A DNA stretch of 64,000 nt from Kiritimatiellia bacterium (GTDB taxonomy: Bacteria; Verrucomicrobiota; Kiritimatiellia; RFP12; UBA1067): positions 59,226 to 123,225 of the forward strand of contig JAFPUH010000037.1 in the NCBI GenBank assembly GCA_017395505.1, written 5' to 3'. Both the position numbers and the translations under genes were made by a program. This document shows positions 5,275-21,850 of the stretch, in pieces (within the stretch, counting starts at the first letter, position 1; every line of letters begins with the position of its first letter). Below the pieces are notes generated by a model. That model was not told the origin of the DNA. It did no database searches and saw only the letters and a list, made by a program, of their open reading frames with translations.

Positions 5275-6837
5275 CTACTCTTCTTGCTTCTCTTCTTCTT
5301 GCTTCTTTTCTTCTGTTTCAGTTCCTTCGCAGCCGCAGTCAAACACGATGTCGGACGCGAGACCTCCGCCGAGCGAGCGGTAGAGGGCTATGAGGTCCAC
5401 CGTTATCTGTCCGCGCGAAACGGCCAGCTCCTCCTCGAGGTTGAGGCGGCTACGCTGCGCATCGAGAACGTTGTTGAAGTCCCTGAGGCCGTTCTTGTAG
5501 AGGTCCTGAGAAATCGTGACGGCATCGGTCGCGGCCTTTACCGCGCTGTTCAGCGCCTGATAGCGATGGTATTCGAGGGTGTAGGCGGAGTAGTTGTCGC
5601 GAACCTCAGCATACGCGCTCTCGAGAGCCAGCTCGTAGTTGAGGCGAGCCTCCTCGACCCTGGCCTCGGCAGCTTTGGTTCTGGCCACGACATTGCCGCC
5701 CTGAAGAAGCGGCCAGGAGATGGACGGGCCGATCGACGCATAGAAGCTGCCGGGCTGCGCGAATTTCGATGCCTGCACCGACTCGAGGCCAAGACCGCCA
5801 GTGATGAAGAGCTTCGGATACCACGCCGACTTGGCCACACCTACGCTCGCTACCTGCGCGGCGAGGGTACGTTCGGCGGCCTTTACGTCGGGACGCGACC
5901 TTATGAGATCCATCGGCAGCTCGGCCACCTTCTGCGGCGACATGAGCCAGTCGCGCCCGGGAACAGGCTTGAGAGTCTCATGCAGCTCGCCCGGAGTCTT
6001 TCCGGCGAGAATCGCAATCGCGTTCTTGAGAGCCTCCTCCTGCGCGAGAAGCTGGGGTATCCTCGCGCGAGTCTGCTCAACGATATAGGCGCACTGGTGC
6101 ACGGCCAGCTCGTCGCCAATGCCGGAGTCGAAGCGCGACTTGAGGATGTCGTATGTCTCGCTCTGCAGCTGAAGGTTGTTGCGGGCGACGGCTATGCGGT
6201 CCTGTATCGTCCTGAGAGTGATGTACTGCTGGCCAAGACGGGTCGTGAGCTCGACCCAAGCCTGTGCGACGCCCCAGCCAGCCGCCTCTGCCTTTGCGAG
6301 AGCCGCCTCGGTTGCGCGACGGTTGCCGCCGAATATGTCGATCTCCCACGACGCGTTGAAGCCGGCGTTGAACACGTCAAGCTGCCTGTGGCGGTATGCA
6401 CCCTGCACGCTGCGGTTGTTGCGGTGTGACTCGGTGCGCGTGGCGCTGCCGTCGATCGAAGCCTTGGGCGAGAACGCCGAAAGCGTGCCGATCATCTCCC
6501 ACTCGGCCTGACGCAGACGGCTGACCGCCGCCTTGAAGCTCAGGTTGTCGGCTATGGCGCACTCGACGAGTTCGGCGAGAACAGGATCGTTCAGCCTCTC
6601 CCACCAGCGGGCCATGAGATCCTCGGAAACTACGACGCGCTCGTCTGCCTCCGCCTCGGCAGTCTTGTACTCGCCGGTGCCGGAGAGCTCTTCGGTCGGA
6701 GAACCCGCGTCAGGCAGGGCGCAGACAGGCGCCTCGACCTCCGGCTCGGTGTAGTCCGGTCCGACGGACGGCAAGTTCATGCACCCCGTTGTGGCCGCAA
6801 GCGAAAAGACCGCAAACCTGTTGAGAACCTTCTTCAT
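5275..6837 (-). CDS. RND efflux outer-membrane factor lipoprotein (NodT/OprM family) with a C-terminal K/E-rich tail
   Basis: 520 aa; signal peptide plus lipobox (LAATTGC); OEP-type repeats; ends ...CEGTETEEKKQEEEKQEE. Confidence 0.9.
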   Translation of the reverse strand: MKKVLNRFAVFSLAATTGCMNLPSVGPDYTEPEVEAPVCALPDAGSPTEELSGTGEYKTAEAEADERVVVSEDLMARWWERLNDPVLAELVECAIADNLSFKAAVSRLRQAEWEMIGTLSAFSPKASIDGSATRTESHRNNRSVQGAYRHRQLDVFNAGFNASWEIDIFGGNRRATEAALAKAEAAGWGVAQAWVELTTRLGQQYITLRTIQDRIAVARNNLQLQSETYDILKSRFDSGIGDELAVHQCAYIVEQTRARIPQLLAQEEALKNAIAILAGKTPGELHETLKPVPGRDWLMSPQKVAELPMDLIRSRPDVKAAERTLAAQVASVGVAKSAWYPKLFITGGLGLESVQASKFAQPGSFYASIGPSISWPLLQGGNVVARTKAAEARVEEARLNYELALESAYAEVRDNYSAYTLEYHRYQALNSAVKAATDAVTISQDLYKNGLRDFNNVLDAQRSRLNLEEELAVSRGQITVDLIALYRSLGGGLASDIVFDCGCEGTETEEKKQEEEKQEE

Positions 6838-6838
6838 G

Positions 6839-9800
6839 TCACTTTACCTCCCTGTCCTTAAGCTGACGGCGACGGTACGCCATCGTGGAAATGTATGCAA
6901 ATACGCGCTTGATGTTCTCGCGCCACGTCTGGAAGAGCGCATACAGCCCCGGCACGAGAAGTATGCCGAACACAACCGACGCGAGCATGCCGAAGAATTC
7001 GGTAGTGCCGAGGTGGTTGCGGCTCGCGGCGCCGGCGCCAGTTGCGAGCATCATCGGCAGCGTGCCGAGAAGCGTCGTAAGAGCAGTCATGAGCAGCGCC
7101 CTCAAGCGTTCGCCGGCGGCGGAGCCGGCGGCATCCACGATCGAGTAGCCCTCGTTCTCGCGCTTGTCCTTGGCGAACTCGACTATGAGAATCGCGTTCT
7201 TCGAGGCCAGACCCACGAGCAGCACGATGCCGAGCTGCGCGTATATCGAAAGCGGATACGGCGAGCCTGTCTGGTAGATGCCGAAGTACTTGAGCCCCAG
7301 AAGCGCACCGAACACCGCGACGAAGATGGAAAGCATCACGGGCAGCGGAATCGTCCAGCTCTCGTACTGAGCCACAAGGAAGAGGTAGCCGAAGAGGATC
7401 GCAAGCGCGATCAGCGCCGCGGCACCACCTTCGTTGCGAGCCTCCTGGAACGAGAGATCCGCCCAGTCGTAGCCGTAGTCGCCAGGCAGCTCCTCGGCGA
7501 AGAGCTTCTTTAGCCGCTCCATCACTGCGCCCGACGCGACGCCCGGCATTGGCTGGATCATCAGCTTGGTCGTCACATACTTGTCGCGGGTGTAGACCGT
7601 TCGAGGTCCGAGCTCGCGTGTTATCGTGCCGAGCGAACCGATCTGGACCATCGCGCCTGTCTCACCGCGCACATAGAGGCGAGAGACAGCCTCGGGCGTC
7701 GCGCGCCCTTCCCAGTCGGACTGTATGGTCACGCGGTTGACCTGGGTGCCCAGGTTGACGTCGTTGACGTAGCGCGAACCGAGGTAGTTCTGAAGCGTGG
7801 TGTATACGGTCGCGACAGGCACCTTGTACATCTCGGCCTTCACGCGGTCGAGGTTGAACCTCAGGTGCGGCGTCACCGCGTTGTAGCCTGAGTACGCCAT
7901 CATGATCTCGGGGAAGACGCTCTTGTCGTTCAGCTTCGCGAGCAGCTTCTTCTGAACCTCCTCGACCTTGAGCGGATCGGCCGAACCCTTGTCCTGGATG
8001 TTCACCGAAATGCCGTTCGCCAGGCCGAGGCCGGGAATCGCCGGCGGCATGAACACCTTCCAGCTGGGCTCAGGAACCGCAGCAAGCGTCTGCATCAGCC
8101 TCTGGACGAGTGCTGCGGCGCTCTGGTCCTTGCCCTTGCGCTCCGACCAGTCGGCCAGGTCTACGATCAGCATGGCCTGGTTTTCGCCTCGGCCGCCGAC
8201 CATCGAGAAGCCGGTGATCGTAAGAACGCTGCGAATCTCCGGAACCTTAAGAAGTATGTCCACCGCCCTGAGCGAAACGTCGCGCGTACGGTCGCGGGTA
8301 GAGCCCTCCGGCATCTCCATCGACGCGAAGACGACGCACTGGTCCTCATCCGGCAGGAATGAGGTCTGGGTGCCGAGGAACATCTGGAGAGTCAGCAGGA
8401 TCGTCAGCACGAGCAGCGCCAGCGCAAGGAATATCCTCGACGCGAGCCACTTCGCGAGGCGTATGAAGAAGCCCTTGAACGCATTGATCACCCAGTTGAA
8501 CCATGCGAGCGGACCATGCTTGTATGGCCTCGCCTCGTGCAGTATGAGCGAGCAGAGGGCAGGCGCGAGCGTAAGCGCGCAGACGGTCGAGAAGCAGACC
8601 GCCGCCGAAAGCGTGACGGAGAACTGCTGGTAGATGCGCCCCGTGATGCCGCTCATGAAGCCGACCGGCACGAAGATGCCGAGCAGCACCAGCGTAGTCG
8701 CGATGACTGCGCTCGTCACATCGCTCATCGCCTGTATAGCCGCCTCCTTGGAGTTGAGCCCGCGGGTTTCGATGAGGTACTGCACGCGCTCGACCACGAC
8801 GATGCAGTCGTCGACGACGACACCGATCGCAAGGATCAGTCCGAACAGGGTGAGAATGTTTATCGAATAGCCCAGCGCCGACATGAGAATGAACGTCGAG
8901 CAGAGCGAAACGGGAATGGTGAGGCAAGGTATAAGCGTCGCGCGCCAGTCCTGCAGGAAGAGGTAGCAGACCAGCACCACGAGCGAGAACGTTATGATGA
9001 GCGTCCAGATGATCTCCTGTATGCAACGCTGCACGTAGTCGGTCGCATCGTATGGGATGACCCACTCGAGATCGTCCGGGAACGACTCGGCGAGGTGGGC
9101 CATCTCGGAGCGGATACGCTTCATCGTGGCTATTGCATTGGCGCCCGGCTTCTGCTGCAGGGCTATCGAAACCGCGTTGCCGCCGTCGAGCTGGCCGGTG
9201 AACATGTAGTTCTGCTCGCCGACTTCGGTGCGGGCGATGTCCTTAAGCCTGACTACGCCGCCGTTGGCGTCGCGCCGGACCACGATCTCGTCGAACTCCT
9301 TGGCGGTCATCAGACGCCCCTTCGCGACGAGCGACATCGTGAACCCCGCATGCTCGCCGGTCGGCGCAGCGCCTACCGAGCCAAGCGACGCCTGTATGTT
9401 CTGCTTGGAGACGGCCGCAATCACCTCTTCGGAGTTCATGCCCTGTGCCGCAAGACGCGCAGGGTCGAGCCACACGCGGACCGACAGCTTCGGCCCGTAG
9501 ACCGTCGCCTCGCCCACGCCGGCCACGCGCAGCAGCACCGGCTGGATGTTGGAGTAGATGTAGTCTGATATCTGAAGGCGGGAAAGCGTGCCGTTCGGCG
9601 ACCTGACCGCGATGAAGCCAAGCATGTCCTCTGACTGCGCGCGGATTCGCCCGCCCAGCTGCTTGACTTCTCCCGGCAGCTTGGCCTCGGCCTGCGCGAC
9701 GCGGTTCTGGACCTTTACCATGTCCATGTCGCGGTCGCTGCCGACCTCGAAGGAAACCGTAAGCGAATACGTACCTTCGTCGCTGCAGCTGCCCGTCATG

Positions 9801-10072
9801 TAGATCATGTCGTCCACGCCGTTCACTTCGTCTTCGATCGGCATGGCCACGGTGTTCAGCACCTCCTTGGCGTTTGCGCCGGGATAGGTGTAGTTGATTG
9901 AGATCGTAGGCGGAGTCAGGCGGGGATACTGCGATACGGGAAGCTTCCAAATCGCCATCACGCCAGACATCGTCAACACGATGGCTATGACCATCGCGAA
10001 CCTGGGACGCTCCACAAACGTCCTGGAGAACGTCTTTATCTGGTCGATGGCGGGTCTGAGGGTGAGTTTCAT
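6839..10072 (-). CDS. RND multidrug efflux transporter (AcrB/MexB family)
   Basis: 1077 aa, 12-TM HAE1-type architecture with conserved N-terminal motifs (FVERPRFAMVIAI...). Confidence 0.95.
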   Translation of the reverse strand: MKLTLRPAIDQIKTFSRTFVERPRFAMVIAIVLTMSGVMAIWKLPVSQYPRLTPPTISINYTYPGANAKEVLNTVAMPIEDEVNGVDDMIYMTGSCSDEGTYSLTVSFEVGSDRDMDMVKVQNRVAQAEAKLPGEVKQLGGRIRAQSEDMLGFIAVRSPNGTLSRLQISDYIYSNIQPVLLRVAGVGEATVYGPKLSVRVWLDPARLAAQGMNSEEVIAAVSKQNIQASLGSVGAAPTGEHAGFTMSLVAKGRLMTAKEFDEIVVRRDANGGVVRLKDIARTEVGEQNYMFTGQLDGGNAVSIALQQKPGANAIATMKRIRSEMAHLAESFPDDLEWVIPYDATDYVQRCIQEIIWTLIITFSLVVLVCYLFLQDWRATLIPCLTIPVSLCSTFILMSALGYSINILTLFGLILAIGVVVDDCIVVVERVQYLIETRGLNSKEAAIQAMSDVTSAVIATTLVLLGIFVPVGFMSGITGRIYQQFSVTLSAAVCFSTVCALTLAPALCSLILHEARPYKHGPLAWFNWVINAFKGFFIRLAKWLASRIFLALALLVLTILLTLQMFLGTQTSFLPDEDQCVVFASMEMPEGSTRDRTRDVSLRAVDILLKVPEIRSVLTITGFSMVGGRGENQAMLIVDLADWSERKGKDQSAAALVQRLMQTLAAVPEPSWKVFMPPAIPGLGLANGISVNIQDKGSADPLKVEEVQKKLLAKLNDKSVFPEIMMAYSGYNAVTPHLRFNLDRVKAEMYKVPVATVYTTLQNYLGSRYVNDVNLGTQVNRVTIQSDWEGRATPEAVSRLYVRGETGAMVQIGSLGTITRELGPRTVYTRDKYVTTKLMIQPMPGVASGAVMERLKKLFAEELPGDYGYDWADLSFQEARNEGGAAALIALAILFGYLFLVAQYESWTIPLPVMLSIFVAVFGALLGLKYFGIYQTGSPYPLSIYAQLGIVLLVGLASKNAILIVEFAKDKRENEGYSIVDAAGSAAGERLRALLMTALTTLLGTLPMMLATGAGAASRNHLGTTEFFGMLASVVFGILLVPGLYALFQTWRENIKRVFAYISTMAYRRRQLKDREVK

Positions 10073-10082
10073 GCGAGGCTCC

Positions 10083-11303
10083 TCATTCGTCGATCGGTGG
10101 TTCGTAGCCGGGAGTGATGTCGTCGTTTGGCGTCGGCTCGACCGGCATTATCTTGATGCCGGGGCCGAGCTTGGAAGTTCCGGAAAGCACGACGCGCTCG
10201 CCAGGCTCAAGCCCGGTGACGACAGGCACCCAGCCTTCGAAGTTCTCCTTGATCTCGACGGGACGCTGCTCGACCGTCATGTCTTCGCGGACGACCCACA
10301 CGCCCTGGTTGCCGCCAGGCAGGTCGAACACGCACTGCTGGGGAATCGACGGATATACCGGCGGATTGGCGTAGTCGGTAAGAAGCGTAACGTAGCTGTT
10401 CGGTATCAGCAGCCGCTCTGGGTTGGGGAACGAGAGGCGCATCATGATCGAGGCGGTCTCCTTCGACATCTGGTTGTCGTCGAAGTCCCACGCGCCCTCC
10501 TGGTCGTACTCGCTGCCGTCTGGCAGCAGGAGGCGCATGCGGAACTCGTGGGCCATGCCCTTCCTCTGCGCCTGACGCCATGCGATATATGCACGGTCGG
10601 TGAGGGGGAACGAGACGCGGATCGGGTCGATCTGAACGATTTTCGCGAGAGGCCCCTTGGACGGCGCGACATAGTCGCCGAGGTGGGCGATTGTCTTGCC
10701 GATCTGACCGGAGATGGGCGCGACTACCTTCGCCTTCTTGAGGTCGTATTCCGCGACCACGAGATTGGCCCTTGCCTGCATCACCTTCGCTCTGGCGCTC
10801 GCGAAGCCAGCCTCGGCATCGTCAAGTTCCTTCTCGGTGATGCCGCGCGAATCGGCCTTCTCCATACGCTCGTAGTAGCGCTGTGCGCGACGCTCCTCGG
10901 CCTCGGCGGCGGATAGATCGGCCTTGCGCTGGTTCACTACGGCCTGATAGCGTTCGTCGTCAAGCACGTAGAGAAGCTGCCCTGCCTGGACGATATCGCC
11001 TTCCTTGAAGGTGATCTCCTTGATGTATCCGTCAACCTGCGGCAGAAGCTCGACCTCCTGGATAGCCTCGGCATGTGCCACGAAGCGTTCCGGCAGGTTG
11101 TAGACGCGGTTTTCGACGTTGGTCAGCGCGACGGTCTGCGGCATTCCTGCCATCGCCGCCATGGGATTGGCCGCCGCCGGCTTCTCGGCCGGCACGAGTT
11201 CGCGCGCAACCCAACCGCCGACTGCACAGACCGCAGCCAGCACAACAGTTCCTATAAGTGCGCCGATTGCGCCCTTCGATTCTTTTTTCGTGGCTTCTGC
11301 CAT
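10083..11303 (-). CDS. RND efflux periplasmic adaptor (membrane fusion protein, AcrA/HlyD family)
   Basis: 406 aa; N-terminal TM, coiled-coil, lipoyl/beta-barrel motifs (VAPISGQIG). First gene of the MFP-RND-OMF operon. Confidence 0.9.
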   Translation of the reverse strand: MAEATKKESKGAIGALIGTVVLAAVCAVGGWVARELVPAEKPAAANPMAAMAGMPQTVALTNVENRVYNLPERFVAHAEAIQEVELLPQVDGYIKEITFKEGDIVQAGQLLYVLDDERYQAVVNQRKADLSAAEAEERRAQRYYERMEKADSRGITEKELDDAEAGFASARAKVMQARANLVVAEYDLKKAKVVAPISGQIGKTIAHLGDYVAPSKGPLAKIVQIDPIRVSFPLTDRAYIAWRQAQRKGMAHEFRMRLLLPDGSEYDQEGAWDFDDNQMSKETASIMMRLSFPNPERLLIPNSYVTLLTDYANPPVYPSIPQQCVFDLPGGNQGVWVVREDMTVEQRPVEIKENFEGWVPVVTGLEPGERVVLSGTSKLGPGIKIMPVEPTPNDDITPGYEPPIDE

Positions 11304-11322
11304 ATCATCCTCCCTAGAGTTT

Positions 11323-11350
11323 GCACCTTTGCAAGGTATGGTGCATGTAT
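11323..11350. promoter_or_regulatory. Imperfect palindrome TTGCACC-TTTGCAAGG-TATGGTGCA in the 5' leader of the efflux operon (operator-like)
   Basis: Lies between the -10 (rc of 11361-11366, AGGTATAAT) and the MFP ATG. Related to the perfect palindrome CCGCACCATATTTGCAAATATGGTGCGG at 18044-18071. Confidence 0.35.
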
Positions 11351-11417
11351 AGGTAGTGTATTATACCTAATTTTGCGGGTCTGCGTCAAATGCTGACGCG
11401 ATATGAAGAAGGCTTCG

Positions 11418-11912
11418 TTACTTGGCCGGAGGCTTCGGCCACTCCACACCCGACATGGTTTCGTCGAGCTTCTTCAGGAACGCCTTGGGACCGCCCTGCG
11501 TATAGCCGCCAATCCGCCTGACGACCTCGCCTTTCGAATCGGTTATGACCATCGACGGAAATCCGCTTATCGAGTATTTCTGGAGCAGTTCCGGATTCTG
11601 CTTCGCAGCGAGGTTCGAGAGCCTCTTCCTGTCCTTGGGATGGTCTATCATGACCAGCACATACTTCTTCGAGGCGCGCTTTATGAACGCACTCTGGGAA
11701 AACACCTCGGCATCCATGCGGACGCAGTAGCCGCACCAGTCCGAGCCGGAAAACGCCATGAACACAAGCTTGCCTTCGCTTTCGGCCTTTTCCCTTGCCT
11801 TGGCCACATCCTCCATCCAGCCCTTCGGTACGCTTCGCGAAACCGACGGCGCGGCATTCGCGACCACGGTGAACATAGCCAATACGACCGCAACTGCATT
11901 CTTTACTTTCAT
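11418..11912 (-). CDS. Secreted thioredoxin-like protein (SGSDWCGYC motif; DUF255/thioredoxin_7-like)
   Basis: 164 aa with signal peptide and a CxxC in a thioredoxin-like context. The motif GSDWC is shared with the N-terminus of the 50269..53418 protein. TGTAAAAT sits 6 nt before the ATG, so the transcript is likely leaderless. Confidence 0.6.
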   Translation of the reverse strand: MKVKNAVAVVLAMFTVVANAAPSVSRSVPKGWMEDVAKAREKAESEGKLVFMAFSGSDWCGYCVRMDAEVFSQSAFIKRASKKYVLVMIDHPKDRKRLSNLAAKQNPELLQKYSISGFPSMVITDSKGEVVRRIGGYTQGGPKAFLKKLDETMSGVEWPKPPAK

Positions 11913-12042
11913 GCGCGTATTTTACAAAATGGCGGCGACTTTGTCAATCGCCTGCTAGAGAGGGATGCCCATGAACCCGGCATTGGAGAAGACCACCGCA
12001 AGCCGAAGGACTTCCCCTGGACGCAACCTGGCTGCGGGAGCA

Positions 12043-14094
12043 TCACTTCTTCACGACCGTGAAGACGTTGCGGTTGCCGACCCTCTCGTATGTGACCGAA
12101 TCGGACATCTTCTTGACCATCATTATGCCAAGACCGCCGATTGGCCTTTCAGCCGCGGAAAGCGTCGTGTCCGGATCGGTGTGCGACAGCGGATCGTACT
12201 CGTCGCCATCGTCTATGAACGACATCTTTACGCATTCGGGATTCTCATTCTCCTCAAGGTCCACCTCGAAGCAGGTCGCTCCGGAATGCTTTACGATGTT
12301 CGAGCATATCTCGTCCAGTATTATGTGGAGCGTCGGCAGAAGGCTCTTGCGCTCGACCGTCTCGTCGAGGAAGTCGGACGCGGCTGCGACACCGGCCTGG
12401 GTCGACGGGAACGACTTTGCGCGGCGCGTGCCGTTGAACCTCAAGAGGAGCTGCGTGCAGTCGTCGGCCTGCTCGACACCGAGGCCATGGGCCCTCACGC
12501 ACGCCAGAACGGCGCCGAGGATGCGCGAACGCGAACCTTCGAACAGCGGAGTGCCGCCGGCGAGCATCGACGAGATGTCCTGCTCTAGGCGTTCTTCGCC
12601 GAACAGCACGTTCTTGGCGTCAGGCTGCTCGGTGATTCCGTCCGTGTAAAGGTATATCGCGTCGCCTGGCTTGAGCTGAAGCGTCTCGCTGCGGTACTTG
12701 ACGCCCGGCATGACGCCGAGCACGAGACCGGGTGTCGAGCGCATGAAGCTCGTGCGGCGGCCATCCTTGTCGGGAGCCTCCGATATGAATATCGGCGGGT
12801 TGTGTCCTGCGTTCACGTAGTTGACGGTGCCGGTCACGAGATCTATCTCGCCAACCCATGCCGTGACGAACATGTTTGCGCCGTTGTCGCGGCTCAGGGC
12901 CTCGTTCGCGGTCGTGACGACCTCGTCGATCGGCCTGCCCGTCTGGGCGATGCCCTTTATGGACGCCTTCGCCCTCATCATGAAGAGCGCGGCCGGAACG
13001 CCCTTTCCGCTCACGTCCGCGATCAGGAACGTCACCTTGGCCGGACCCGAGAAGTAGAAGTCGTAGAAGTCGCCTCCGACATCCTTCGCCGTGTTCATGT
13101 CGGCGAAGATGTCTATCCGGTGCTCTCCGGGGAACGGCGGGAAGGTACGCGGAATGGCGCTCTCCTGGATCTCGGAAGCCATCGCCATCTCCTTCTTGCG
13201 CTGCGCGGAGATTTGCCCTTTGACATAGCCTGCAATGACGATTCCCACCAGGAACGAGGCCAGAATGAGGGCCATTCCGTTCAGGAACGCCGATGTTGCG
13301 ACGAGTACACGCCTTTCAACTATCGCAGTGCGCTTGGGAATGACGGCATATACCGGGAAGCCCTCGATTATGCGCTTCTCGCAATAGCTCTCTTCGCCAG
13401 GATCGACCCACTGGCCGCCCTCGCAACCGGCCTCGGGATGCGATATGATCGTGCCGTTGACCGTCGTTATGAATATGCCGCCGTTGTCCCCGCTCACATG
13501 CCAGCCGTGTGTCAGGCCCGTGACTGCGGTTCTGGACAGGTTGCGCACCGACTGCGGCCGGGCGCCGACCTGCACGAAGCCGCCGTCAGGCAGCCACACG
13601 CCGACATACTTTACCATATCGCCGCGAAGCGTGTTGGGCAGAAGAGGCTGGGTCACCTCGAATTTGTCTGTGAGCAGCGCAGCAAACTCCTTCGCCTGGC
13701 CGTCCGCCTTGGTGAAGTCTAGAGCCCCCACCTCCTCGCGGCGCGCGCTGTGTGTAAGCATTCCGTCGGAGTTGACGATGCATATCTCGTCGACGCGAAG
13801 CTCGTCGGCCACATTCCTGAGCCGGCGGCACGACTCGTCGGGATCGTTCCACCACGGCTCTTCGCGCATCTCGTAGTATTTGTCGCGAAGCAGCATCGCC
13901 TGGCGCAGCATCTTGGCGTCCACACGCTCGCGAATGTCGACCGCGACATCATTGAATACGTTGTCGAAGATGCGCTGCATCTCCCGCTTCGTCATCTTCT
14001 CGTGAAGAATCCACGTAAGCACCATCGACGCGACGAACGCTATGGCGACAGCGCCGACGAGCCTAAATACAAGTCTGCGATTGGATGTCTTCAT
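12043..14094 (-). CDS. Membrane sensor PP2C (SpoIIE/RsbU-type) serine phosphatase fused to a C-terminal RsbW/SpoIIAB-type HATPase kinase domain
   Basis: 683 aa: TM1, a periplasmic domain of about 230 aa, TM2, a PP2C domain (DVSGKG, DGITE motifs), then a HATPase_c N-box and G-boxes (DDGDEYD, GGLGIMMVKKMSD). Confidence 0.85.
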   Translation of the reverse strand: MKTSNRRLVFRLVGAVAIAFVASMVLTWILHEKMTKREMQRIFDNVFNDVAVDIRERVDAKMLRQAMLLRDKYYEMREEPWWNDPDESCRRLRNVADELRVDEICIVNSDGMLTHSARREEVGALDFTKADGQAKEFAALLTDKFEVTQPLLPNTLRGDMVKYVGVWLPDGGFVQVGARPQSVRNLSRTAVTGLTHGWHVSGDNGGIFITTVNGTIISHPEAGCEGGQWVDPGEESYCEKRIIEGFPVYAVIPKRTAIVERRVLVATSAFLNGMALILASFLVGIVIAGYVKGQISAQRKKEMAMASEIQESAIPRTFPPFPGEHRIDIFADMNTAKDVGGDFYDFYFSGPAKVTFLIADVSGKGVPAALFMMRAKASIKGIAQTGRPIDEVVTTANEALSRDNGANMFVTAWVGEIDLVTGTVNYVNAGHNPPIFISEAPDKDGRRTSFMRSTPGLVLGVMPGVKYRSETLQLKPGDAIYLYTDGITEQPDAKNVLFGEERLEQDISSMLAGGTPLFEGSRSRILGAVLACVRAHGLGVEQADDCTQLLLRFNGTRRAKSFPSTQAGVAAASDFLDETVERKSLLPTLHIILDEICSNIVKHSGATCFEVDLEENENPECVKMSFIDDGDEYDPLSHTDPDTTLSAAERPIGGLGIMMVKKMSDSVTYERVGNRNVFTVVKK

Positions 14095-14768
14095 TTCTCG
14101 CCCCTCGCCGCAATCACCTCGTCTAGCGCCGCCTTCAGGCGGACGTTCCCCTTGCCGAGAGCTATGCCGAAGTTCTCGCGCGTCTCCAGCCGTGACGCCG
14201 CCAGCTCGCCGCCGGACAACTCCGCGGTATGCCTGACGGCGCTGCTGTCGAAGAATACCGCATCGACGCGTCTGGCCCTCAAAGCCTTCAATGCCAAAGG
14301 ATACGTATCGTAGCGTATCGGATCTATGTTGTGCGCCGACAGGTAGAAGTCGTAGGTAGACGCATCAATGGTCGCAACGCGCAGGTTCTCGACCAAGATC
14401 ATTGTCGGCATGCGCTCGCTGGCGCGGTAGAGGAACATTCCGCCCTCGTGCGCATACGGCTCCGAGAAATCTACGGCCTGGAGACGCCCCTCGGTGATCG
14501 TTATCGTGGACGCCGCCATGTCGGCCTTGCCAGAACTGACCATCGGCAGAAGGTCGGGGAACTTCGCCCAGCGGACCTCAAGCCCGCGCCCAAGCTTTGC
14601 GGCGGCTTCGCGCGCTATGTCAATCTCTATGCCGACGATCTCGCCGGTCGCTTCGTCGCGGTATGAGAACGGTGGAGTGTCTGTAGTCGTTATGAGCACA
14701 AGCGGCGGCTCGGCCGCCACGAGGGACGTCGCCAGAAGGACGCCCAGAAACGCAAGACTGCTTTTCAC
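14091..14768 (-). CDS. Periplasmic solute-binding protein, family 3 (amino-acid-binding type), orphan (no permease or ATPase nearby)
   Basis: 225 aa, signal peptide, SBP_bac_3-like sequence. ATGA overlap with the downstream phosphatase-kinase gene. Confidence 0.75.
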   Translation of the reverse strand: MKSSLAFLGVLLATSLVAAEPPLVLITTTDTPPFSYRDEATGEIVGIEIDIAREAAAKLGRGLEVRWAKFPDLLPMVSSGKADMAASTITITEGRLQAVDFSEPYAHEGGMFLYRASERMPTMILVENLRVATIDASTYDFYLSAHNIDPIRYDTYPLALKALRARRVDAVFFDSSAVRHTAELSGGELAASRLETRENFGIALGKGNVRLKAALDEVIAARGEK

Positions 14769-14770
14769 GG

Positions 14771-15064
14771 TCAGACGATCGTAAAGATGGAACTCATGCC
14801 CGTGATGTCGAAGACGCTCTTGACCATCTCGTTCGGGCTCACGATGGACATCTTGCCACCAGAGACCATCATCGCCTTCTGCGCACCCATGAGAACGCGT
14901 AGACCTGCGGACGAGATATATTCAAGATCGGCAAAGTCGAACAGTATCTCCGTTACGCCGTCAAGCTTAAGCTCGCCCTCAAGCTCCGGCGAGGTGTTGG
15001 TGTCGAGGCGCCCCTCGACCTTGAGCGTAAGGCATCCGTTTTCCAGTTTCTTCTCGATTTTCAT
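14771..15064 (-). CDS. STAS-domain anti-sigma-factor antagonist (SpoIIAA/RsbV-like)
   Basis: 97 aa; DLEYISSAGLRVL carries the conserved phosphorylatable Ser in a STAS fold. First gene of the operon; SD AAGGAA 8 nt before the ATG. Confidence 0.8.
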   Translation of the reverse strand: MKIEKKLENGCLTLKVEGRLDTNTSPELEGELKLDGVTEILFDFADLEYISSAGLRVLMGAQKAMMVSGGKMSIVSPNEMVKSVFDITGMSSIFTIV

Positions 15065-15102
15065 TTATGGTTTCCTTGTAGGCTAAATAGCAGTATGCTT
15101 TA

Positions 15103-15114
15103 TATATTATACCA
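15103..15114 (-). promoter_or_regulatory. Extended -10 promoter TGGTATAAT for the STAS / SBP / phosphatase-kinase operon
   Basis: rc of 15106-15114 is TGGTATAAT; about 34-nt leader with an SD. Confidence 0.5.
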
Positions 15115-15205
15115 AATTTGCCTCGTCTCGTGTGCTGGGAATTTTTGCAAAGACCACAAGGTAGGTGGACTCATGTACAGCCAAGAGCAAAATCCAGTTT
15201 CGCAT

Positions 15206-15380
15206 GGTTTGCGAAGTTGTTTTGGCAAAAATGGAGGTGGTAAGTATAGAAATATAGTATATATTAGATATATATTACTAATTATATTTTACACACAAAA
15301 ACAATTTCGCAACGCGCAGGGGGGTACCCTTATAACATGGCACACCCCATGCGAAGTTGGATTTTTGCGAAGTTGGATTT
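15206..15380. promoter_or_regulatory. Three copies of TGCGAAGTTG(G/T)(A/T)TTT (two in tandem at 15348-15380) plus a 60-bp AT-rich tract, upstream of the partner-switching operon promoter
   Basis: Direct repeats at about 15208-15223, 15348-15362 and 15367-15381. The AT-rich block 15241-15300 contrasts with the 65% GC background. Confidence 0.35.
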
Positions 15381-15386
15381 GCCCTG

Positions 15387-16010
15387 CTATGCGTTTACCC
15401 GCATATCCGCCCAGAGCTGTTCCTGTGCCTCGATGACGAGAAGCATCATTTCGCGGGTCGCGTCATCGATTTCGGCCGCTTCGTACCGTGCATTTGCGAT
15501 GTTGCCGAGCATGATCAGCGCCTCCGTCCACATCTCGTACGAGCAGGAGTCCTTCCTTTTGGCGAGTTTCGCACCTTCGAGAACGTATGCATCGAGCGCC
15601 GTTCGCACATCGCGCTGGAATACGCTCTCGTCGAAAAGCGTGTCGGTGTCGTTGGGGTCGTTCTCGTCGTCGGGGTCCTTGAGCCTGTATTCGAACGTCG
15701 CATCGAAGGCCATGACGAACATCACGACCTCCATGAGCTGGCGCTTGCTGTCGAATTCAAGCGGAAGGCGGCATACGCCGTTCGCGAGACTGTCGGAGTC
15801 CTCATTGATAGCCTTTAGAATGTGGCTCTTCACATTCTCGCGCCTTTCGGCGTCCAGTGAGGGATTCGCCGGCTGCCTGTCGTAGCCGAAGTAGAACATT
15901 TTCAGTATGGGACGCCAGAAGTCGTCCGTCCTGCGCTCCTTTGCGGCCTCCCAGTCAAGGACTTCGCCGTCGGTTCTCTGCGTCTTGCCAATGAAATCGA
16001 GCGTCTTCAT
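15387..16010 (-). CDS. Hypothetical acidic protein (207 aa), downstream partner of the P-loop protein
   Basis: ORF with a 4-nt overlap (16007-16010) to the upstream gene. No recognisable family. Confidence 0.5.
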   Translation of the reverse strand: MKTLDFIGKTQRTDGEVLDWEAAKERRTDDFWRPILKMFYFGYDRQPANPSLDAERRENVKSHILKAINEDSDSLANGVCRLPLEFDSKRQLMEVVMFVMAFDATFEYRLKDPDDENDPNDTDTLFDESVFQRDVRTALDAYVLEGAKLAKRKDSCSYEMWTEALIMLGNIANARYEAAEIDDATREMMLLVIEAQEQLWADMRVNA

Positions 16011-17779
16011 TTCGCGTTCCCCTTCTTTATGACGTATTTGGTGCCCTTTCCGTTCGAGCCGATTCTATGGAGTATCGTCACCTCGTCGCGATCTTCGAGG
16101 GTTTCCTCTATCTTGTCCATCTCGAACTTGGTGACATGCAGCCCCTTTGTGATTTCCGAGCGCATCACTCCCGCGTCGCCTGCCTTGCGGATCATGCGGA
16201 TCGCGGCGAGCACCTTCTCGTCCGTCTCGTTTGTCGCCGCGTAGTCTCGCGCCATCTGCAGCATGCGGCCCTGGATCGCCTTGACGAGCGCCCACGCCCA
16301 GCGGACGCCCTCGACGGAGATAACCGGCCTTTCGATGTCGGCGCTGATCGCGTGCAGGAGCGCGAGCTTGAGGACCAGTTCGACCGAACGTCCCCACACC
16401 GACTCCTCCATCGCGTCGCCCGCCGCCTTTTCGTAGAGCGCGTCCGACTCGTCGGAGACCTTGCGAGCCTCCTCCTCGGCTTCCGGCGACATCTGCACGA
16501 GATACGGCTGTATAGGCCCCCTGTCGCCCGCAGGCGGGGGCATCGCCGCAAGCCGCGACACCTTGTCGGTCACGAAATACGGCACGGGGTTCGCCTCCAG
16601 CCCCGACTTGAAGTTGTCCTTGCTGCGGGGCCCCGCCTCGAATACGAGGCAGCGCCCGAGAAGTCCGCCCGTAAGCGCGCGCTGGCTGAGGGCGCTGTAG
16701 AAGTTGCTCGGCGTCGCTGTCGCGAACATCGAGAAAGAGGGCTTTACGATGTCCTCTCGGCCCTGCGGCTTGTTGGGGCCGGCGGCCTTGGCGCGCGTCG
16801 TGTGGATCGAGCCGGACGACGTGAAGATGCTCAGCATCAAGCGCCAGAGGGATTCCGTCGCCGAGCTGCTGTTGCGGTCGCTCTTGAGCTCGCGAAGCAC
16901 CGAGTCGTACTCGTCGAACTGGCAAAGGAGCGTCGGCGAGTTGAGGAGCGCATCCTCGAGGCCCTGTCCAGAGGCGACGTTCTGTATGACGGACGACGAC
17001 ATGCGGACGTTCGCGGCGAGGTTCTTTATCACCTTTCGGGGGTGGTCCTTGCCGGTCGCGGAGCCGGCGAGCGCGATTATGTAGAGGTTTGGGTATGCGT
17101 CGCGGGGGCCGACGAACTTGCGTCCCGCCAGGTGGGCGAGGAACACGAGCGAGCCCGCGAAGGAAAGCACGCGATTCGGACGGTGGGCCGAGAGCATCAT
17201 GTATTCGGTGAGCTCGTTCACGAAGCCGGGCACATTGAGGAGCGACTCGTCGATCGCGCCCTGGTTCTGGGGCGAGGACGCCTTCTCGGGGGCCGGCGCG
17301 GCCTCGTCGCCGCAGGGCGGCAGGGTGATGGTCGAGATCATGTCTCGAGCGGCCGTGTAGCGGCTCGTCACCTCCTCGTTGAGCGCGGAAAGCGCAAACT
17401 GGCGGGCCTCGAAGGACGGGAAGCTCCGCATGTTGATGTCTTCGGTGCCGCGCCTGAGGTCGCGCTCGCACACGACGGACACGAACTCGCGGAAGTCGGT
17501 GCGAATCGTGGCGGTACTCGCCGCGAGGCCATTGAAGAAGTCCAGAAACCCGTCGTCGGCCAGCTCCGGCATGCTCTTTACGGCCGCAACGCCGCGTACT
17601 ATGGCGTCTTGGCTCGTTTCGTTCATAAGCGCACGGAAAGCGGCGCTTCGGCTGTCGCTCGAGAAATAGCTGTTCTCAATTCCGATCCGCTCGACAAGGA
17701 GTTTCGCCTGCCGCGCGAACTGCACAAGATGAGACAGCACCGCATACTCAAGCCGCTCTTCTTTGGTGATGTCTTTCAT
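16007..17779 (-). CDS. P-loop NTPase-like protein resembling the DUF3987 / VirE (phage-plasmid primase C-terminal-like) family, with a C-terminal winged-helix-like region
   Basis: 590 aa from the internal ATG at 17779. The longer track ORF to 17959 would read through the REP-like repeat. Deviant Walker A LYIIALAGSATGKD and Walker-B-like LLCQFDEYD. TGGTATAAT sits 8 nt upstream of the ATG, suggesting a leaderless transcript. Confidence 0.55.
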   Translation of the reverse strand: MKDITKEERLEYAVLSHLVQFARQAKLLVERIGIENSYFSSDSRSAAFRALMNETSQDAIVRGVAAVKSMPELADDGFLDFFNGLAASTATIRTDFREFVSVVCERDLRRGTEDINMRSFPSFEARQFALSALNEEVTSRYTAARDMISTITLPPCGDEAAPAPEKASSPQNQGAIDESLLNVPGFVNELTEYMMLSAHRPNRVLSFAGSLVFLAHLAGRKFVGPRDAYPNLYIIALAGSATGKDHPRKVIKNLAANVRMSSSVIQNVASGQGLEDALLNSPTLLCQFDEYDSVLRELKSDRNSSSATESLWRLMLSIFTSSGSIHTTRAKAAGPNKPQGREDIVKPSFSMFATATPSNFYSALSQRALTGGLLGRCLVFEAGPRSKDNFKSGLEANPVPYFVTDKVSRLAAMPPPAGDRGPIQPYLVQMSPEAEEEARKVSDESDALYEKAAGDAMEESVWGRSVELVLKLALLHAISADIERPVISVEGVRWAWALVKAIQGRMLQMARDYAATNETDEKVLAAIRMIRKAGDAGVMRSEITKGLHVTKFEMDKIEETLEDRDEVTILHRIGSNGKGTKYVIKKGNAK

Positions 17780-17820
17780 GGCTACTATTATACCAAAAAT
17801 GGCGAGACGGTGCGTCGCAC

Positions 17821-18030
17821 AGGTCCCGGCGGGCAAGGCGTCAAAGTCCCAGGACCCCAGACTATTTTGCCCTGCCACTTTTCGTATTGGAGTCCCAGGA
17901 CCCCAGACGTCAAACCCCCAGGACTTTGACCCCTTGGGTCCTAGGACTTCACACCTCAAAGTCCTAGGACTTCATACCCCAAAGTCCTAGGACTTTGCTC
18001 GCCTCTCCGCGTGACCCCTTCAAGCCGCCT
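17821..18030. repeat. REP-like intergenic element, copy A (about 210 bp) with three GTCCTAGGAC palindromes; homologous to 58599..58760
   Basis: Alignable to copy B from AGGTCC(C/A)GGCGGGCAAGGCGTCAAAGTCCC through GACTTTGCTC.CCT.CCGCGTG. Several nested inverted repeats. Confidence 0.8.
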
Positions 18031-18043
18031 CGAAGAACCACTT

Positions 18044-18071
18044 TCCGCACCATATTTGCAAATATGGTGCG
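18044..18071. repeat. Perfect 28-bp palindrome CCGCACCATATTTGCAAATATGGTGCGG
   Basis: Seen directly in sequence. It sits 26 nt past the stop of the 18097..20262 gene and is not followed by a T-tract. Confidence 0.8.
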
Positions 18072-18096
18072 GAATTCTAACGCCCGTAATATTACG

Positions 18097-20262
18097 CTAT
18101 GGCATTTCGACCGTCACCTTGAAGAACCGATGAAGCGAATTGGTCGGATACGCCCATTCCTCAGTAGACGATAGCGTCTCCTTGCCATATATCTTGTAAA
18201 GCCGTTCAATGCTATTCGTGTTCAAGTTCGGCTCCCATGTCACAACTGGCACGCCATCTTGCATGTCTATCTTCGCCGTAAACACGCTCGTTTCATTCGT
18301 CGGGTTTGTTCCGGCCACAAACTCTTCCCAAAGTCTCGTCGCCTTCCCGCCCTGCGTCTTGCCGCTCAAGGCAATCGCCGTTGTCTCGAAGTCAGTATCC
18401 TTGCCATCAAAACCGTATTTCGTCAACCACGAATACGGCACGGGTTCTGGTGTGGTCATTGTGAAGCCACTACCGTCGGCAGGCGCCCACTGCACCTGAT
18501 CAACCCAAATGCAGTCTGGCGCATACGAAGTCGCGCCATCCTTGCGGTATTCCCATTTGAGCGTATGCTTGCCGCCTCCCACAATTTCATGCGAGACATA
18601 ATGCCATTCGCCATCATGGCCGGCAATCCTCGCCACAACCACATCATCTACCAAGAAAGCACCATAATCATAGTAACCGTCGTCCCCTTCTTCCTCATCG
18701 GCTTCTTCGCACGCCGCTCTCCACCAGAACGACACCTTACCGTCCTTCTTAATCGAAGATTGCAGCCATGTAGTCTCGTTATTGCCAATCGTACCACTCT
18801 GCACGGACGACACGCCGTCATGCGAAACGTCCGTCACAACGGTCCAGGGATGCGAGTCATCCGTCTCCATCGTGTAACCGTAGAAATTCGCCGCCTCGCT
18901 CAAAGACTCACTTCGCGTGAAGGTCGCCGTAGCCTCTTCCGAATCCTTCCAATCATCCTTGACGGCAATCGCCCGCACGCTGCAAGATTGATAGATGCCG
19001 AAAGGATGCTTGTACTCGCGCCCATTCACCGCTGGGTCGCCCCCGTCAACCGTGTAGAGTATCGTCGCTCCTTCAGTCTCGCACGAAATCGAAACTGCCT
19101 GTGAAACATTGTCAAAGGTTATCCCGCTTGGTTCGATAACTGGTCGCTCAACAGTATACCACTCGCGCGTAAACGTCGCCGTCGCAGTTTCGCTATCAAA
19201 CCAATCCTCCTTAAATGCTTTGGCCTTAACCGTTGTTGTGTCGTCAATTGCAAACGGTCCTGTGTAGAGCGCACTCTTCTCCGTCGGTTCACTCCCATCA
19301 AGCGTATAATGAATCTCGACACTATCGGTTTCACAAGAAAGCGTCACTATGTTGCCGGCCCAATTGAACACATTCTCTTCTGCGGATATGTTCGGCTCGA
19401 CTGCTTGACCAAACGCATACTCATTCGAGTAAACGACTTGATATGGATATTCGGCAACATACGCCAATGCCTTGACTTGTACCCGATGGGTTATCGAAAA
19501 CGGGCCTTCATACAGGAAACATTTTGCGGTTTGATTTGTAGTCGGCTCGCTCCCGTCAATCGTATAATAAATTTTTGCGGTATCATTTGCTGATGTCAAA
19601 ACAACTTTTCTGTCTTCAGCAAGCACGCCGTCAGCTGGAGCAAAGTTCACTTTTGCGGCTCCATAATCCACCGCGCCCATGAGCCATGTTTCACCTTCTA
19701 CCCAGTCTTCGCATCCCTCAACCGCCATACATCCATTACCTTGAGAGTAATTGAAGCGTCCCGTGCAGCTACATTCGCGGCCGCCGGCACTCCAACTAGA
19801 TGAAATAGTGGTTGCTGGTTTTAAGCCTTCAAACATGATATTTACTGTATTTTTGATGGGATAAACCCACCAGCCTCGCCATGTATCATAATAATTATGA
19901 TCCCTGAGACTTGCCCTCGAAAAAAATGAGCTTCCATTTGTTGCGATTCTTAAAACGGTTGAAGGGACTATTACGGCCGTCACATCCGAATCATCAGGTA
20001 TTTTGATAGCACCTACCCCAATACCAACTACTGGCATACCATCAATCATAGATGGCAATCTTAATACCTTTGGCAGCGCTCCACTATGGGCGGGCAATGG
20101 ACTATTGGACTCATTAGGAACCATTGTTCGTGTGGAGGGATTCTCCAAAACAACGCCATCTTTATCTTCATAATAATACCAAGTGATTCCTTCTATGGTT
20201 TGTGTCAGAGCAAAGACACTGCTGGTGATCCCCGCAAATATCAAGACTAACATGCTTTTCAT
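18097..20262 (-). CDS. Secreted or cell-surface protein with a BspA-like leucine-rich region and four chitobiase/beta-hexosaminidase C-terminal-type (Fn3-like) repeats
   Basis: 721 aa with signal peptide. Repeated IYYT(I/L)DGSEPT / ILYTVDGGDP modules. Markedly lower GC than the flanks. Confidence 0.75.
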   Translation of the reverse strand: MKSMLVLIFAGITSSVFALTQTIEGITWYYYEDKDGVVLENPSTRTMVPNESNSPLPAHSGALPKVLRLPSMIDGMPVVGIGVGAIKIPDDSDVTAVIVPSTVLRIATNGSSFFSRASLRDHNYYDTWRGWWVYPIKNTVNIMFEGLKPATTISSSWSAGGRECSCTGRFNYSQGNGCMAVEGCEDWVEGETWLMGAVDYGAAKVNFAPADGVLAEDRKVVLTSANDTAKIYYTIDGSEPTTNQTAKCFLYEGPFSITHRVQVKALAYVAEYPYQVVYSNEYAFGQAVEPNISAEENVFNWAGNIVTLSCETDSVEIHYTLDGSEPTEKSALYTGPFAIDDTTTVKAKAFKEDWFDSETATATFTREWYTVERPVIEPSGITFDNVSQAVSISCETEGATILYTVDGGDPAVNGREYKHPFGIYQSCSVRAIAVKDDWKDSEEATATFTRSESLSEAANFYGYTMETDDSHPWTVVTDVSHDGVSSVQSGTIGNNETTWLQSSIKKDGKVSFWWRAACEEADEEEGDDGYYDYGAFLVDDVVVARIAGHDGEWHYVSHEIVGGGKHTLKWEYRKDGATSYAPDCIWVDQVQWAPADGSGFTMTTPEPVPYSWLTKYGFDGKDTDFETTAIALSGKTQGGKATRLWEEFVAGTNPTNETSVFTAKIDMQDGVPVVTWEPNLNTNSIERLYKIYGKETLSSTEEWAYPTNSLHRFFKVTVEMP

Positions 20263-20627
20263 ACTCTTTCTCCTTTCGTAGAATCTGTGATAATGATATG
20301 CGTGCCATAAGGTGCACCTCGTTTTTGAAGTTCCATCTTAATGTTCAATTTATGCCATTCACAATACCTCTTAAGTTCCTCGAATTCTTCTAGTCCGTCG
20401 AAGGCTCCGCTTCCGTGATGCCGAGAGATGAAGCAAACATCACCAGTCGTTGTATAACCAACAGTGGCATGATCAAGAAACTTCAAATTCTTACAAGAAC
20501 CAAATATGCTTTTTTGTAAGCAACCCCTTGGGCACCGGCCGCCACGCAAAACCAGAGCTGGGCAACCAGAATGATAAGTCTTAATCTCCTTGCCGTCTGG
20601 TAAGGAATAAATGTATGGTTTTGACAT
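20259..20627 (-). CDS. Small Cys/His-rich hypothetical protein (122 aa), translationally coupled upstream of the surface protein
   Basis: 4-nt overlap with 18097..20262. Motifs SGCPALVLRGGRCPRGC and HATVGY..ISRHHGSG. Possibly a papain-like or C39-like fold, unproven. Confidence 0.45.
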   Translation of the reverse strand: MSKPYIYSLPDGKEIKTYHSGCPALVLRGGRCPRGCLQKSIFGSCKNLKFLDHATVGYTTTGDVCFISRHHGSGAFDGLEEFEELKRYCEWHKLNIKMELQKRGAPYGTHIIITDSTKGERV

Positions 20628-20852
20628 CTATCAGTATCTCCTTTCGCCTGCCGCTACCTAGTTTGTGAGATGAGCACCGGTGGCAAAAGATAAGCGGCGC
20701 ACTCTCAAGATTCACATCTTCTGGAGGCACCGGAAAGAGCCCGAAGTAAAACATGATTAGAAAGTACGCCGCGTGGATACCACGCAGCGCAACTTCGTAT
20801 TTCGCCTTACTCCTTGAAAATTTCCGGTTTTCCAGAAAGCTACTATACGCTG

Positions 20853-21036
20853 TTGCGTACGTTGCACGGGTTAGGTTGCCCACCCCGCGCTTTTCTCCAC
20901 TCCACTTCACCCGAAGTGTGGGAGCTACGGCCGGCTTTTCTGCCCGACCGGTATGTCAAAGAACCTTGCCCTTCTCGCGAAGGAACGGCGAATATGATAC
21001 CATATCGCCGCGCTCATTTCAAGCGCGGCGAGAGGG
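20853..21036 (-). repeat. About 185-bp repeat R190, copy 1: GC-rich structured segment ending in a hairpin (TCGCCGCGC-TCATTTCAA-GCGCGGCGA) immediately followed by TGGTATCAT
   Basis: More than 95% identical to 21616..21797. The 3' 50 nt also occur at 23121..23170 and, diverged, at 58836..58878. Confidence 0.85.
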
Positions 21037-21063
21037 AAATTAGTTTTCGAAATTCTGTGCCTA

Positions 21064-21312: not shown

Positions 21313-21324
21313 AGCTTAGCCCTA

Positions 21325-21576: not shown

Positions 21577-21615
21577 TTTAAATGCCCTCCTTTCTTTCCG
21601 ATGGTCTATTCTAAA

Positions 21616-21797: not shown

Positions 21798-21850
21798 TCA
21801 AAATCTCATTCCTTCAGTGGGCTCGGAGTAATGCGCAAATCCGGCTGCAA

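Follow-up and report, generated by a model that had tools for sequence, protein, structure and literature searches.

How is a periplasmic solute-binding protein (SBP) of the amino-acid type, encoded apart from any transporter, connected to a serine phosphatase, a serine kinase and a switch protein on which both could act? The question is posed by a stretch of DNA from a Kiritimatiellia bacterium (contig JAFPUH010000037.1), here called the window, which was analysed over its full length of 64 kb. An open reading frame (ORF) check combined with Pfam searches shows that the minus strand of the window carries, at 12043-15064, three tightly packed ORFs encoding a STAS protein, an SBP_bac_3 protein and a membrane protein of 683 amino acids (aa). 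The original prediction had described these three ORFs, and their coordinates, their strand and every other detail of the description that was checked proved correct. We consider it probable, on the evidence set out below, that the three genes constitute a self-contained unit, a periplasmic-binding-protein-dependent partner-switching sensor, in which the phosphatase is the regulated activity and the STAS protein the switch. The features on which this reading draws are the following.

15065..15386, minus strand: AT-rich intergenic region 5' of the operon, presumed from the sequence to be its promoter region
14771..15064, minus strand: STAS-domain protein, 97 aa, predicted phospho-substrate and switch protein, anti-sigma-factor-antagonist type (PF01740, TIGR00377)
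14909..14911, minus strand: Ser52 codon of the STAS gene, predicted phosphorylation site (…EYIS-S52-AGLRV…) from alignment
14091..14768, minus strand: secreted family-3 SBP, 225 aa, GTG start, locally orphan (PF00497, hydrophobic N-terminus)
14091..14094, minus strand: ATGA overlap of the SBP stop and the sensor start in the sequence, translational coupling
12043..14094, minus strand: 683-aa membrane sensor comprising transmembrane segment 1 (TM1), a double-Cache (dCache) domain, TM2, a helical linker, a PP2C domain and an RsbW-type kinase domain
13999..14076, minus strand: TM1, residues 7-32, from hydropathy; a helix in the AlphaFold2 (AF2) models
13309..13998, minus strand: periplasmic dCache sensor domain, residues 33-262
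13210..13308, minus strand: TM2, residues 263-295, from hydropathy; part of the continuous helix 261-313
13090..13209, minus strand: cytoplasmic linker, residues 296-335, from the AF2 full-length model; the helix runs on to residue 313
12430..13089, minus strand: PP2C/SpoIIE-type serine phosphatase domain, residues 336-555 (PF07228, motifs, Foldseek)
12046..12429, minus strand: HATPase_c_2 (RsbW/SpoIIAB-type) serine kinase/anti-sigma-like domain, residues 556-683 (PF13581, boxes, Foldseek)
11919..11947, minus strand: near-consensus promoter of the downstream thioredoxin gene, TTGACA-17-TAAAAT, matching at 11/12 positions

All four Pfam families that had been named for these proteins were matched. 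The 97-aa protein is a STAS domain (PF01740, E = 9.7e-14), which also matches, above the cut-off, the NCBIfam anti-sigma factor antagonist family TIGR00377 (5.5e-20) and has SpoIIAA and RsbV as its top sequence matches in the PDB. It contains the motif DLEYISSAGLRV, and its Ser52, which aligns with the phospho-serine of SpoIIAA (FMD-S-SGL), is invariant in 45/45 distinct STAS sequences from related loci. Only 2 nucleotides (nt) separate the STAS gene from that of the 225-aa protein, which belongs to SBP_bac_3 (PF00497, E = 2.8e-25). The signal peptide that had been claimed for the SBP is borne out by an N-terminus that is hydrophobic over residues 1-28, with a Sec-type signal peptide at approximately residues 1-20, and the claimed ATGA coupling by the overlap with the sensor gene. 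Several orthologs possess lipoprotein-type signal peptides (…AGCG…) instead of this Sec-type signal and, since the type varies among orthologs, the SBP would be membrane-anchored in some species and soluble in others. Its closest solved relatives are of the Thermotoga arginine-binding protein, lysine/arginine/ornithine (LAO) and glutamine (GlnBP) types, and in the alignment of the SBP clade the positions S/T-x-T…R95 and D174 are invariant, so that both the fold and the conserved Arg and Asp of the SBPs of polar amino-acid importers are present. On the established knowledge of LAO, HisJ and GlnBP we take R95 to contact the α-carboxylate and D174 the α-amino group. The ligand is likely to be amino-acid-like, the contacts recognisable in the sequence being the generic ones to an α-amino acid.

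The 683-aa protein divides into a sensor half and a catalytic half. Hydropathy indicates two TM segments enclosing a periplasmic stretch of ~230 aa, whose fold is that of a dCache domain, the type on which SBPs dock in LuxQ, ScrC, MbaA and HptS. The full-length AF2 model (pLDDT, the predicted local distance difference test score, 84.4) contains a single continuous helix over residues 261-313; there is no Pfam match to a HAMP domain anywhere in the protein, and TM2, as modelled, would lead straight into the helical linker that enters the PP2C domain. The phosphatase domain matches PF07228 over residues 352-553 (E = 3.2e-45), with the motifs VGGDFYDF, ADVSGKG, NAGHNPP, LYTDGxTE and QxDDxT at least 85% conserved over 31 relatives and the metal-binding Asp motifs of PPM phosphatases intact, and its Foldseek matches are Rv1364c, RssB, SpoIIE and SiaA. 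The C-terminal domain matches PF13581 over residues 564-682 (E = 3.3e-13; 50.2 bits against a cut-off of 27.4). The ATP-binding boxes of this domain had been singled out beforehand as the point on which the kinase assignment hung; the N-box (E…NI), G1 (D.G….PL) and G2 (GGLGI..VKK) are all present, at least 80% conserved over 26 relatives and, like the PP2C motifs, kept even in relatives at ~25% identity. The top structural match of the full-length model is 3KE6, the RsbU and RsbW domains of Rv1364c (372 columns, E = 1.9e-19, Foldseek), in an alignment that spans both cytoplasmic domains, and Rv1364c is also the best PDB sequence match of the large protein. With the isolated kinase domain as query, phmmer found no significant match among PDB sequences; the RsbW-type assignment nevertheless stands because Pfam, motif conservation and Foldseek agree. 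Domains and motifs together predict that the protein both phosphorylates and dephosphorylates the STAS protein.

Is the SBP a partner of this protein or simply its neighbour? Relatives of the large protein occur in metagenome-assembled genomes of Kiritimatiellae and Victivallales, mostly from rumen and gut, and are of two forms, one fused (~685 aa) and the other PP2C-only (~560 aa). The gene neighbourhoods of three fused homologs retain the order STAS-SBP-sensor within unrelated flanks, and one PP2C-only homolog retains an overlapping SBP gene with no adjoining STAS; no conserved flanking gene was found in the related loci. A survey that did not presuppose a partner, in which the SBP-clade alignment was scanned against metagenome contigs, yielded 54 loci, 44 of them assessable in that they extend for at least 300 nt downstream of the SBP gene. 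A dCache sensor gene lies directly 3' of the SBP gene in all of these (44/44), and the 4-nt (A/G)TGA overlap is retained at 46/46 distinct SBP/sensor junctions. Form could be counted in the 28 loci with full downstream sequence: 16 encode the fused kinase, with a STAS gene upstream in 14 of the 16 (one of the remaining two has no room for it and one has no STAS), and 12, or ~40%, are PP2C-only, with STAS in none (0/12). Because the SBP persists in these PP2C-only variants, from which kinase and STAS are both missing, it is to the sensor-phosphatase that the SBP is wired and not to the bifunctional enzyme as such. The claim that the SBP signals to an enzyme setting STAS phosphorylation is thus supported, with one qualification: the linkage of SBP and sensor is supported by synteny, gene overlap, co-divergence, the dCache fold and the scarcity of ABC (ATP-binding cassette) partners, whereas its attachment to a bifunctional enzyme does not hold for the family at large.

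The pattern of divergence points to the same pairing. Among 33 non-identical loci the divergence of the SBP correlates with that of the periplasmic domain at r = 0.83 and with that of the PP2C domain of the same polypeptide at r = 0.51; in partial Mantel tests the former correlation persists when PP2C divergence is controlled for (r = 0.77, p <= 2e-4), while that between SBP and PP2C vanishes once periplasmic-domain divergence is taken into account (r = -0.10, p = 0.86). Of the three, the periplasmic domain also evolves most slowly (mean distance 0.25, compared with 0.30 for the SBP and 0.36 for PP2C), which is unusual for a sensor domain and would fit a protein-protein interface. On one contig (L066, 1376-6971) two SBP-sensor pairs stand in tandem, the second being divergent in SBP (2e-46) and sensor (6e-55) alike, a sign that the pair was duplicated as a unit.

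The genomic context of an importer component is correspondingly missing. Among the ~45 ORFs surveyed in the window we found neither a polar-amino-acid permease nor a sigma factor, in agreement with what had been predicted on both points, and the sole ABC ATPase, at 44520-45215, lies ~30 kb from the operon; a search for paralogs of the three proteins within the window found none. Across 64 SBP-sensor loci, totalling 377 kb, a polar-amino-acid permease lies near just one. A cognate permease (BPD_transp_1) and ATPase near the SBP are thus absent from the window and occur in 1/64 related loci, and on this ground of transporter context the SBP does not qualify as part of an importer. It has instead what characterises SBP-dependent receptors, namely linkage to a receptor gene and not to ABC genes, and a dCache-like domain in that receptor.

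We envisage the following sequence of events. The secreted SBP would bind an amino-acid-like ligand in the periplasm and dock on the dCache domain, in the manner of LuxP with LuxQ, ScrB with ScrC and NspS with MbaA; such a contact is what synteny, translational coupling and co-divergence together suggest. From there TM2 and the continuous helical linker would relay the change to a dimer's PP2C domains and so switch the phosphatase. Activation through a coiled-coil linker has been demonstrated in RsbU and put forward as a general mechanism of PPM phosphatases (PMC12143880), and the continuous helix 261-313 fits that model. The RsbW-type kinase would phosphorylate Ser52 of the STAS protein and the PP2C domain would remove the phosphate, such that the ligand would set the ratio of phosphorylated to unphosphorylated STAS. 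Since the SBP-dCache-PP2C arrangement exists without kinase and STAS, the regulated step appears to be the phosphatase, as in RsbU, RsbP and SpoIIE; that the ligand-loaded SBP activates it, as opposed to inhibiting it, is a guess made with low confidence. Unphosphorylated STAS would then bind the kinase/anti-sigma domain or another partner, releasing or capturing a target encoded elsewhere, which by analogy with CrsR/CrsA and HsbR/HsbA would most likely be a sigma factor.

These analogies need to be drawn with some care. In HsbR/HsbA of Pseudomonas aeruginosa and CrsR/CrsA of Shewanella oneidensis a single polypeptide likewise combines PP2C with an RsbW-type kinase/anti-sigma domain, adjoins the gene for a single-domain STAS substrate and acts on a sigma factor, RpoS, that is encoded elsewhere (PMC6482189). 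The window protein shares the order of PP2C and then kinase in one polypeptide as well as the adjoining STAS gene. The input differs, being in HsbR and CrsR a cytoplasmic receiver fed by a phosphorelay and here a dCache domain in a transmembrane protein, served by a periplasmic SBP dedicated to it. No Response_reg/REC match was found in the 683-aa protein, whose N-terminus is TM-dCache-TM, and lacking a REC domain the protein would work like HsbR/CrsR without being a member of that family. The absence of a local sigma gene is normal for this class of fused proteins, because rpoS lies away from both hsbRA and crsRA. Rv1364c of Mycobacterium tuberculosis (3KE6) again fuses an RsbU-type PP2C to an RsbW-type kinase, but is cytoplasmic, has an N-terminal PAS domain and includes the STAS domain in the fusion (PMC12143880), whereas in the window STAS has a gene to itself and sensing falls to a periplasmic, SBP-linked domain. 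In Chlamydia trachomatis RsbU, a periplasmic sensor PP2C acting with RsbW, RsbV1 and RsbV2, the kinase RsbW is a separate protein, and the accessible part of the published account describes no SBP; the periplasmic domain studied here resembles that of RsbU only distantly, other dCache domains such as that of DctB scoring higher.

The input half has its own precedents. In LuxP-LuxQ, ScrB-ScrC, NspS-MbaA and HptA-HptS an SBP gene adjoins that of a receptor and not of a transporter, the receptor having a dCache-like periplasmic domain, and ScrB is, moreover, itself an SBP_bac_3 protein (PMC8050422). The outputs of these systems are histidine kinases or GGDEF/EAL enzymes, in contrast to a PP2C domain with or without an RsbW-type kinase. 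The GlnH-GlnX-PknG system of M. tuberculosis comes close in another respect, as a non-transport SBP_bac_3 protein signals there through a membrane protein to serine/threonine phospho-signalling (PMC8050422), but GlnX, a four-helix-bundle protein, is the partner and a Hanks-type kinase the output, in place of a dCache-PP2C/RsbW protein with STAS as its substrate. A 2021 survey has SBPs feeding chemoreceptors, histidine kinases, cyclic di-GMP enzymes and one Hanks kinase, and lists no PP2C phosphatase (PMC8050422), while dCache-linked serine phosphatases figure in censuses of rumen microbes (PMC9540692). Beyond such census-level mention of dCache phosphatases, our search of the literature found no description of an SBP feeding a PP2C partner switch, or of SBP_bac_3 together with SpoIIE. 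Each half of the module is therefore precedented, and to fuse a kinase and a phosphatase for one STAS protein is not new, given HsbR, CrsR and Rv1364c; it is the combination with an SBP that we did not find described. The module is accordingly a real and conserved combination of known signalling designs.

How widely does each half extend? Down to 40% identity, and among the matches listed, SBP-linked forms are confined to a Kiritimatiellae-like set. Relatives at ~25% identity are dCache-PP2C-HATPase_c_2 proteins of Clostridia, Coriobacteriaceae, Elusimicrobia and Victivallales, with the kinase either fused or split off, a STAS gene adjoining and no SBP; a sensor-domain scan of species-representative genomes found at least 26 loci, and SBP-less relatives thus span at least these taxa. 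Given these distant relatives without an SBP, a core of sensor-PP2C-RsbW plus STAS appears to be widespread in gut anaerobes, and the SBP to be a lineage-specific addition to its input. A ~220-aa N-terminal extension of many Clostridia relatives was considered as a possible fused SBP (a Rosetta-stone arrangement) and rejected, as it is a multi-pass 5TM-5TMR_LYT membrane domain, and no SBP domain was found in further representatives with longer extensions. These Clostridia homologs (L014, 5356-8196; also L010, L016, L018-L023 and L027) place the LytS-type 5TM-5TMR_LYT domain before the dCache-PP2C-HATPase_c_2 core, and hence potentially combine two sensor modules in one phosphatase/kinase. A recurrent neighbour in the Clostridia loci, of ~395 aa, consists of an N-terminal STAS domain with the conserved Ser fused to an APH-family phosphotransferase, and stands beside a plain STAS gene. 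Four such fusions are placed as follows.

L014, 8200-9387: STAS-APH fusion
L020, 8550-9722: STAS-APH fusion
L027, 4690-5895: STAS-APH fusion
L016, 10592-11824: STAS-APH fusion

We know of no description of this fusion, which may serve the partner switch as an enzymatic output or as a second substrate. Polar amino-acid ABC importers adjoin the partner-switching module in three loci, of Kiritimatiellae-like (L006, 8398-10811), Ruminococcus (L023, 8225-10975) and Victivallaceae (L031, 524-4056) origin, each with an SBP, or SBP domains, of its own, which hints that module and amino-acid uptake are functionally linked also in the absence of a dedicated SBP.

One genome (L087) brings several of these elements together, containing an SBP with a PP2C-only gene 6 kb from a STAS gene that is paired with an SBP-less 697-aa fused PP2C-kinase paralog. 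The periplasmic region of that paralog is very different, but in kinase domain and STAS it closely resembles the window, the STAS having the same LEYISSAGLRVLM site. As judged from these sequences, the arrangement suggests that several sensor phosphatases converge on one STAS protein. The two modules lie within 10 kb (9270-19806), with an insertion sequence (rve) transposase and a 1454-aa protein without a family match between them, and upstream lie a type II CRISPR-Cas9 locus and a HisKA_3/GerE two-component pair. We give about even chances to a more general proposition, namely that SBP-dependent sensor phosphatases form a new receptor class, in which a PP2C partner switch would be driven by an obligate periplasmic sensor of amino acids, made up of a dedicated non-transport SBP_bac_3 protein and a dCache domain. 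The SBP-dCache-PP2C whole would act as a portable cassette that either has a kinase fused to it and a STAS of its own, or stands alone and feeds the STAS of a paralogous module.

Several observations weigh against an SBP-driven switch. dCache domains usually bind small ligands themselves, and since a homologous domain serves those relatives in Clostridia, Elusimicrobia and Victivallales that lack an SBP, the dCache domain here may have a ligand of its own. The SBP retains what appears to be a normal transport-type pocket, with the canonical carboxylate- and amino-binding Arg and Asp, and could have a second role with a distant ABC importer; at L006 an amino-acid importer does adjoin the module. 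The co-divergence signal could, in part, reflect exchange of cytoplasmic domains among paralogs and not a physical interface. On these grounds one might suppose that the dCache domain senses its own small ligand directly and that the SBP serves mainly a distant importer, being co-transcribed for co-regulation or for a secondary modulation of the kind known from MBP with Tar and ChvE with VirA. The many SBP-less dCache-PP2C-kinase loci, the intact pocket and the importers beside the module at L006, L023 and L031 all speak for this, and yet we think it unlikely. No permease is near 63 of the 64 SBP-sensor loci, the exception being L006, where, as at L023 and L031, the importer brings SBP sequences of its own; and neither the unbroken succession of SBP and sensor genes, with its invariant overlap, nor a divergence of the SBP that tracks the periplasmic domain specifically is readily accommodated by a protein that works chiefly elsewhere. 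Far less credible still is that the SBP gene is the remnant of a broken ABC operon stranded beside an unrelated partner-switching pair. A mobile element does lie immediately 5' of the operon in the window, and the rve insertion sequence beside the PP2C-only form in L087, but triad or pair is conserved at 40% to 99% identity on dozens of independent contigs with different flanks, the ORFs are intact, and pocket and catalytic residues are conserved along with the gene overlap, all of which effectively refutes decay.

A different doubt concerns the output step alone and is compatible with input through the SBP. The HATPase_c_2 domain might be only a kinase, and the STAS protein itself an effector with phosphorylation-dependent targets other than sigma factors, like HsbA with FlgM and HsbD. 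Neither the window nor any conserved flank yielded an output partner or, in particular, a sigma factor; a membrane-tethered kinase domain makes sigma sequestration less obvious; HsbA does possess phosphorylation-dependent non-sigma partners (PMC6482189); and the recurrent STAS-APH fusion of the Clostridia relatives suggests that enzymatic outputs can be linked to STAS. Against this, the kinase domains of CrsR and HsbR bind RpoS although rpoS is unlinked, so that the absence of a linked sigma gene is uninformative. We regard a non-sigma output as a serious but still tentative option, and retain the SBP-dependent partner switch, acting on a target encoded elsewhere, as our preferred reading.

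The operon has a clear boundary on one side. No consensus promoter was found in 15065..15386, a sigma-70-type match on the minus strand being absent. At the 3' end, since the downstream thioredoxin gene has its own near-consensus promoter at 11919..11947, the unit comprises three genes and ends there. The thioredoxin, a DsbH-like periplasmic protein (NF043050, E = 6e-28) encoded at 11418-11912 on the minus strand directly 3' of the sensor gene, was considered as a fourth operon member and rejected on account of this promoter and because it is not a conserved neighbour in the related loci. A thioredoxin gene lies directly 5' of the STAS gene in L006 (4665-4970). In the periplasmic dCache domain Cys105 is nearly invariant and Cys238 is part of the clade consensus, and a redox or disulfide link between thioredoxin and sensor is possible.

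The surroundings are otherwise diverse. Immediately 5' of the operon, at 15387-23170, is a probable integrated mobile element that includes a stretch of low GC content (47-54% against ~60%) and for which neither an integrase nor a tRNA target was identified, the window's only tRNA lying at 44423-44499. Its genes, apart from an ORF without a family match (15387-16010), are those for a DUF3987/phage-type DNA primase-helicase (16007-17959; phrog_3022, E = 2e-61), a large surface protein in which the CHB_HEX_C/Fn3_assoc repeat occurs three times (18097-20262) and a nucleotidyltransferase (22805-23161), together with two pairs of small genes, DUF4160/DUF2442 (21064-21630) and DUF3990/DUF3791 (22041-22795). 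Downstream of the operon, and on its strand, 5275-11303 (minus) is occupied by a complete efflux operon of the RND (resistance-nodulation-division) type, in which the outer-membrane factor is encoded at 5275-6837, the inner-membrane pump, of 1077 aa, at 6839-10072 and the membrane-fusion protein at 10083-11303. Farther away, the large subunit of an [FeFe]-hydrogenase and a NuoF-like flavoprotein subunit are encoded side by side (53543-57154, minus), a pairing characteristic of electron-bifurcating hydrogenases and in keeping with a host from gut or rumen that is strictly anaerobic.

What would such a module mean for partner switching? Its value is limited in that both halves are well precedented and the hosts are uncultured rumen and gut bacteria. 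What is chiefly missing for most partner-switching systems, among them the Rsb pathway of Chlamydia, which belongs to the same superphylum, is the input signal, and this would, if our reading is correct, be one of the rare partner-switching phosphatases whose input is directly identifiable, by way of a soluble SBP that is easily screened for ligands. The natural fused and unfused variants offer, in addition, a comparative handle on why kinase and phosphatase fuse. Should the SBP be shown to drive the partner switch, signalling through serine phosphatases and STAS proteins would join the outputs of three-component periplasmic sensing and, if the wider proposition of a receptor class also holds, the partner-switching networks of gut Kiritimatiellae would integrate several periplasmic nutrient signals on one STAS node.

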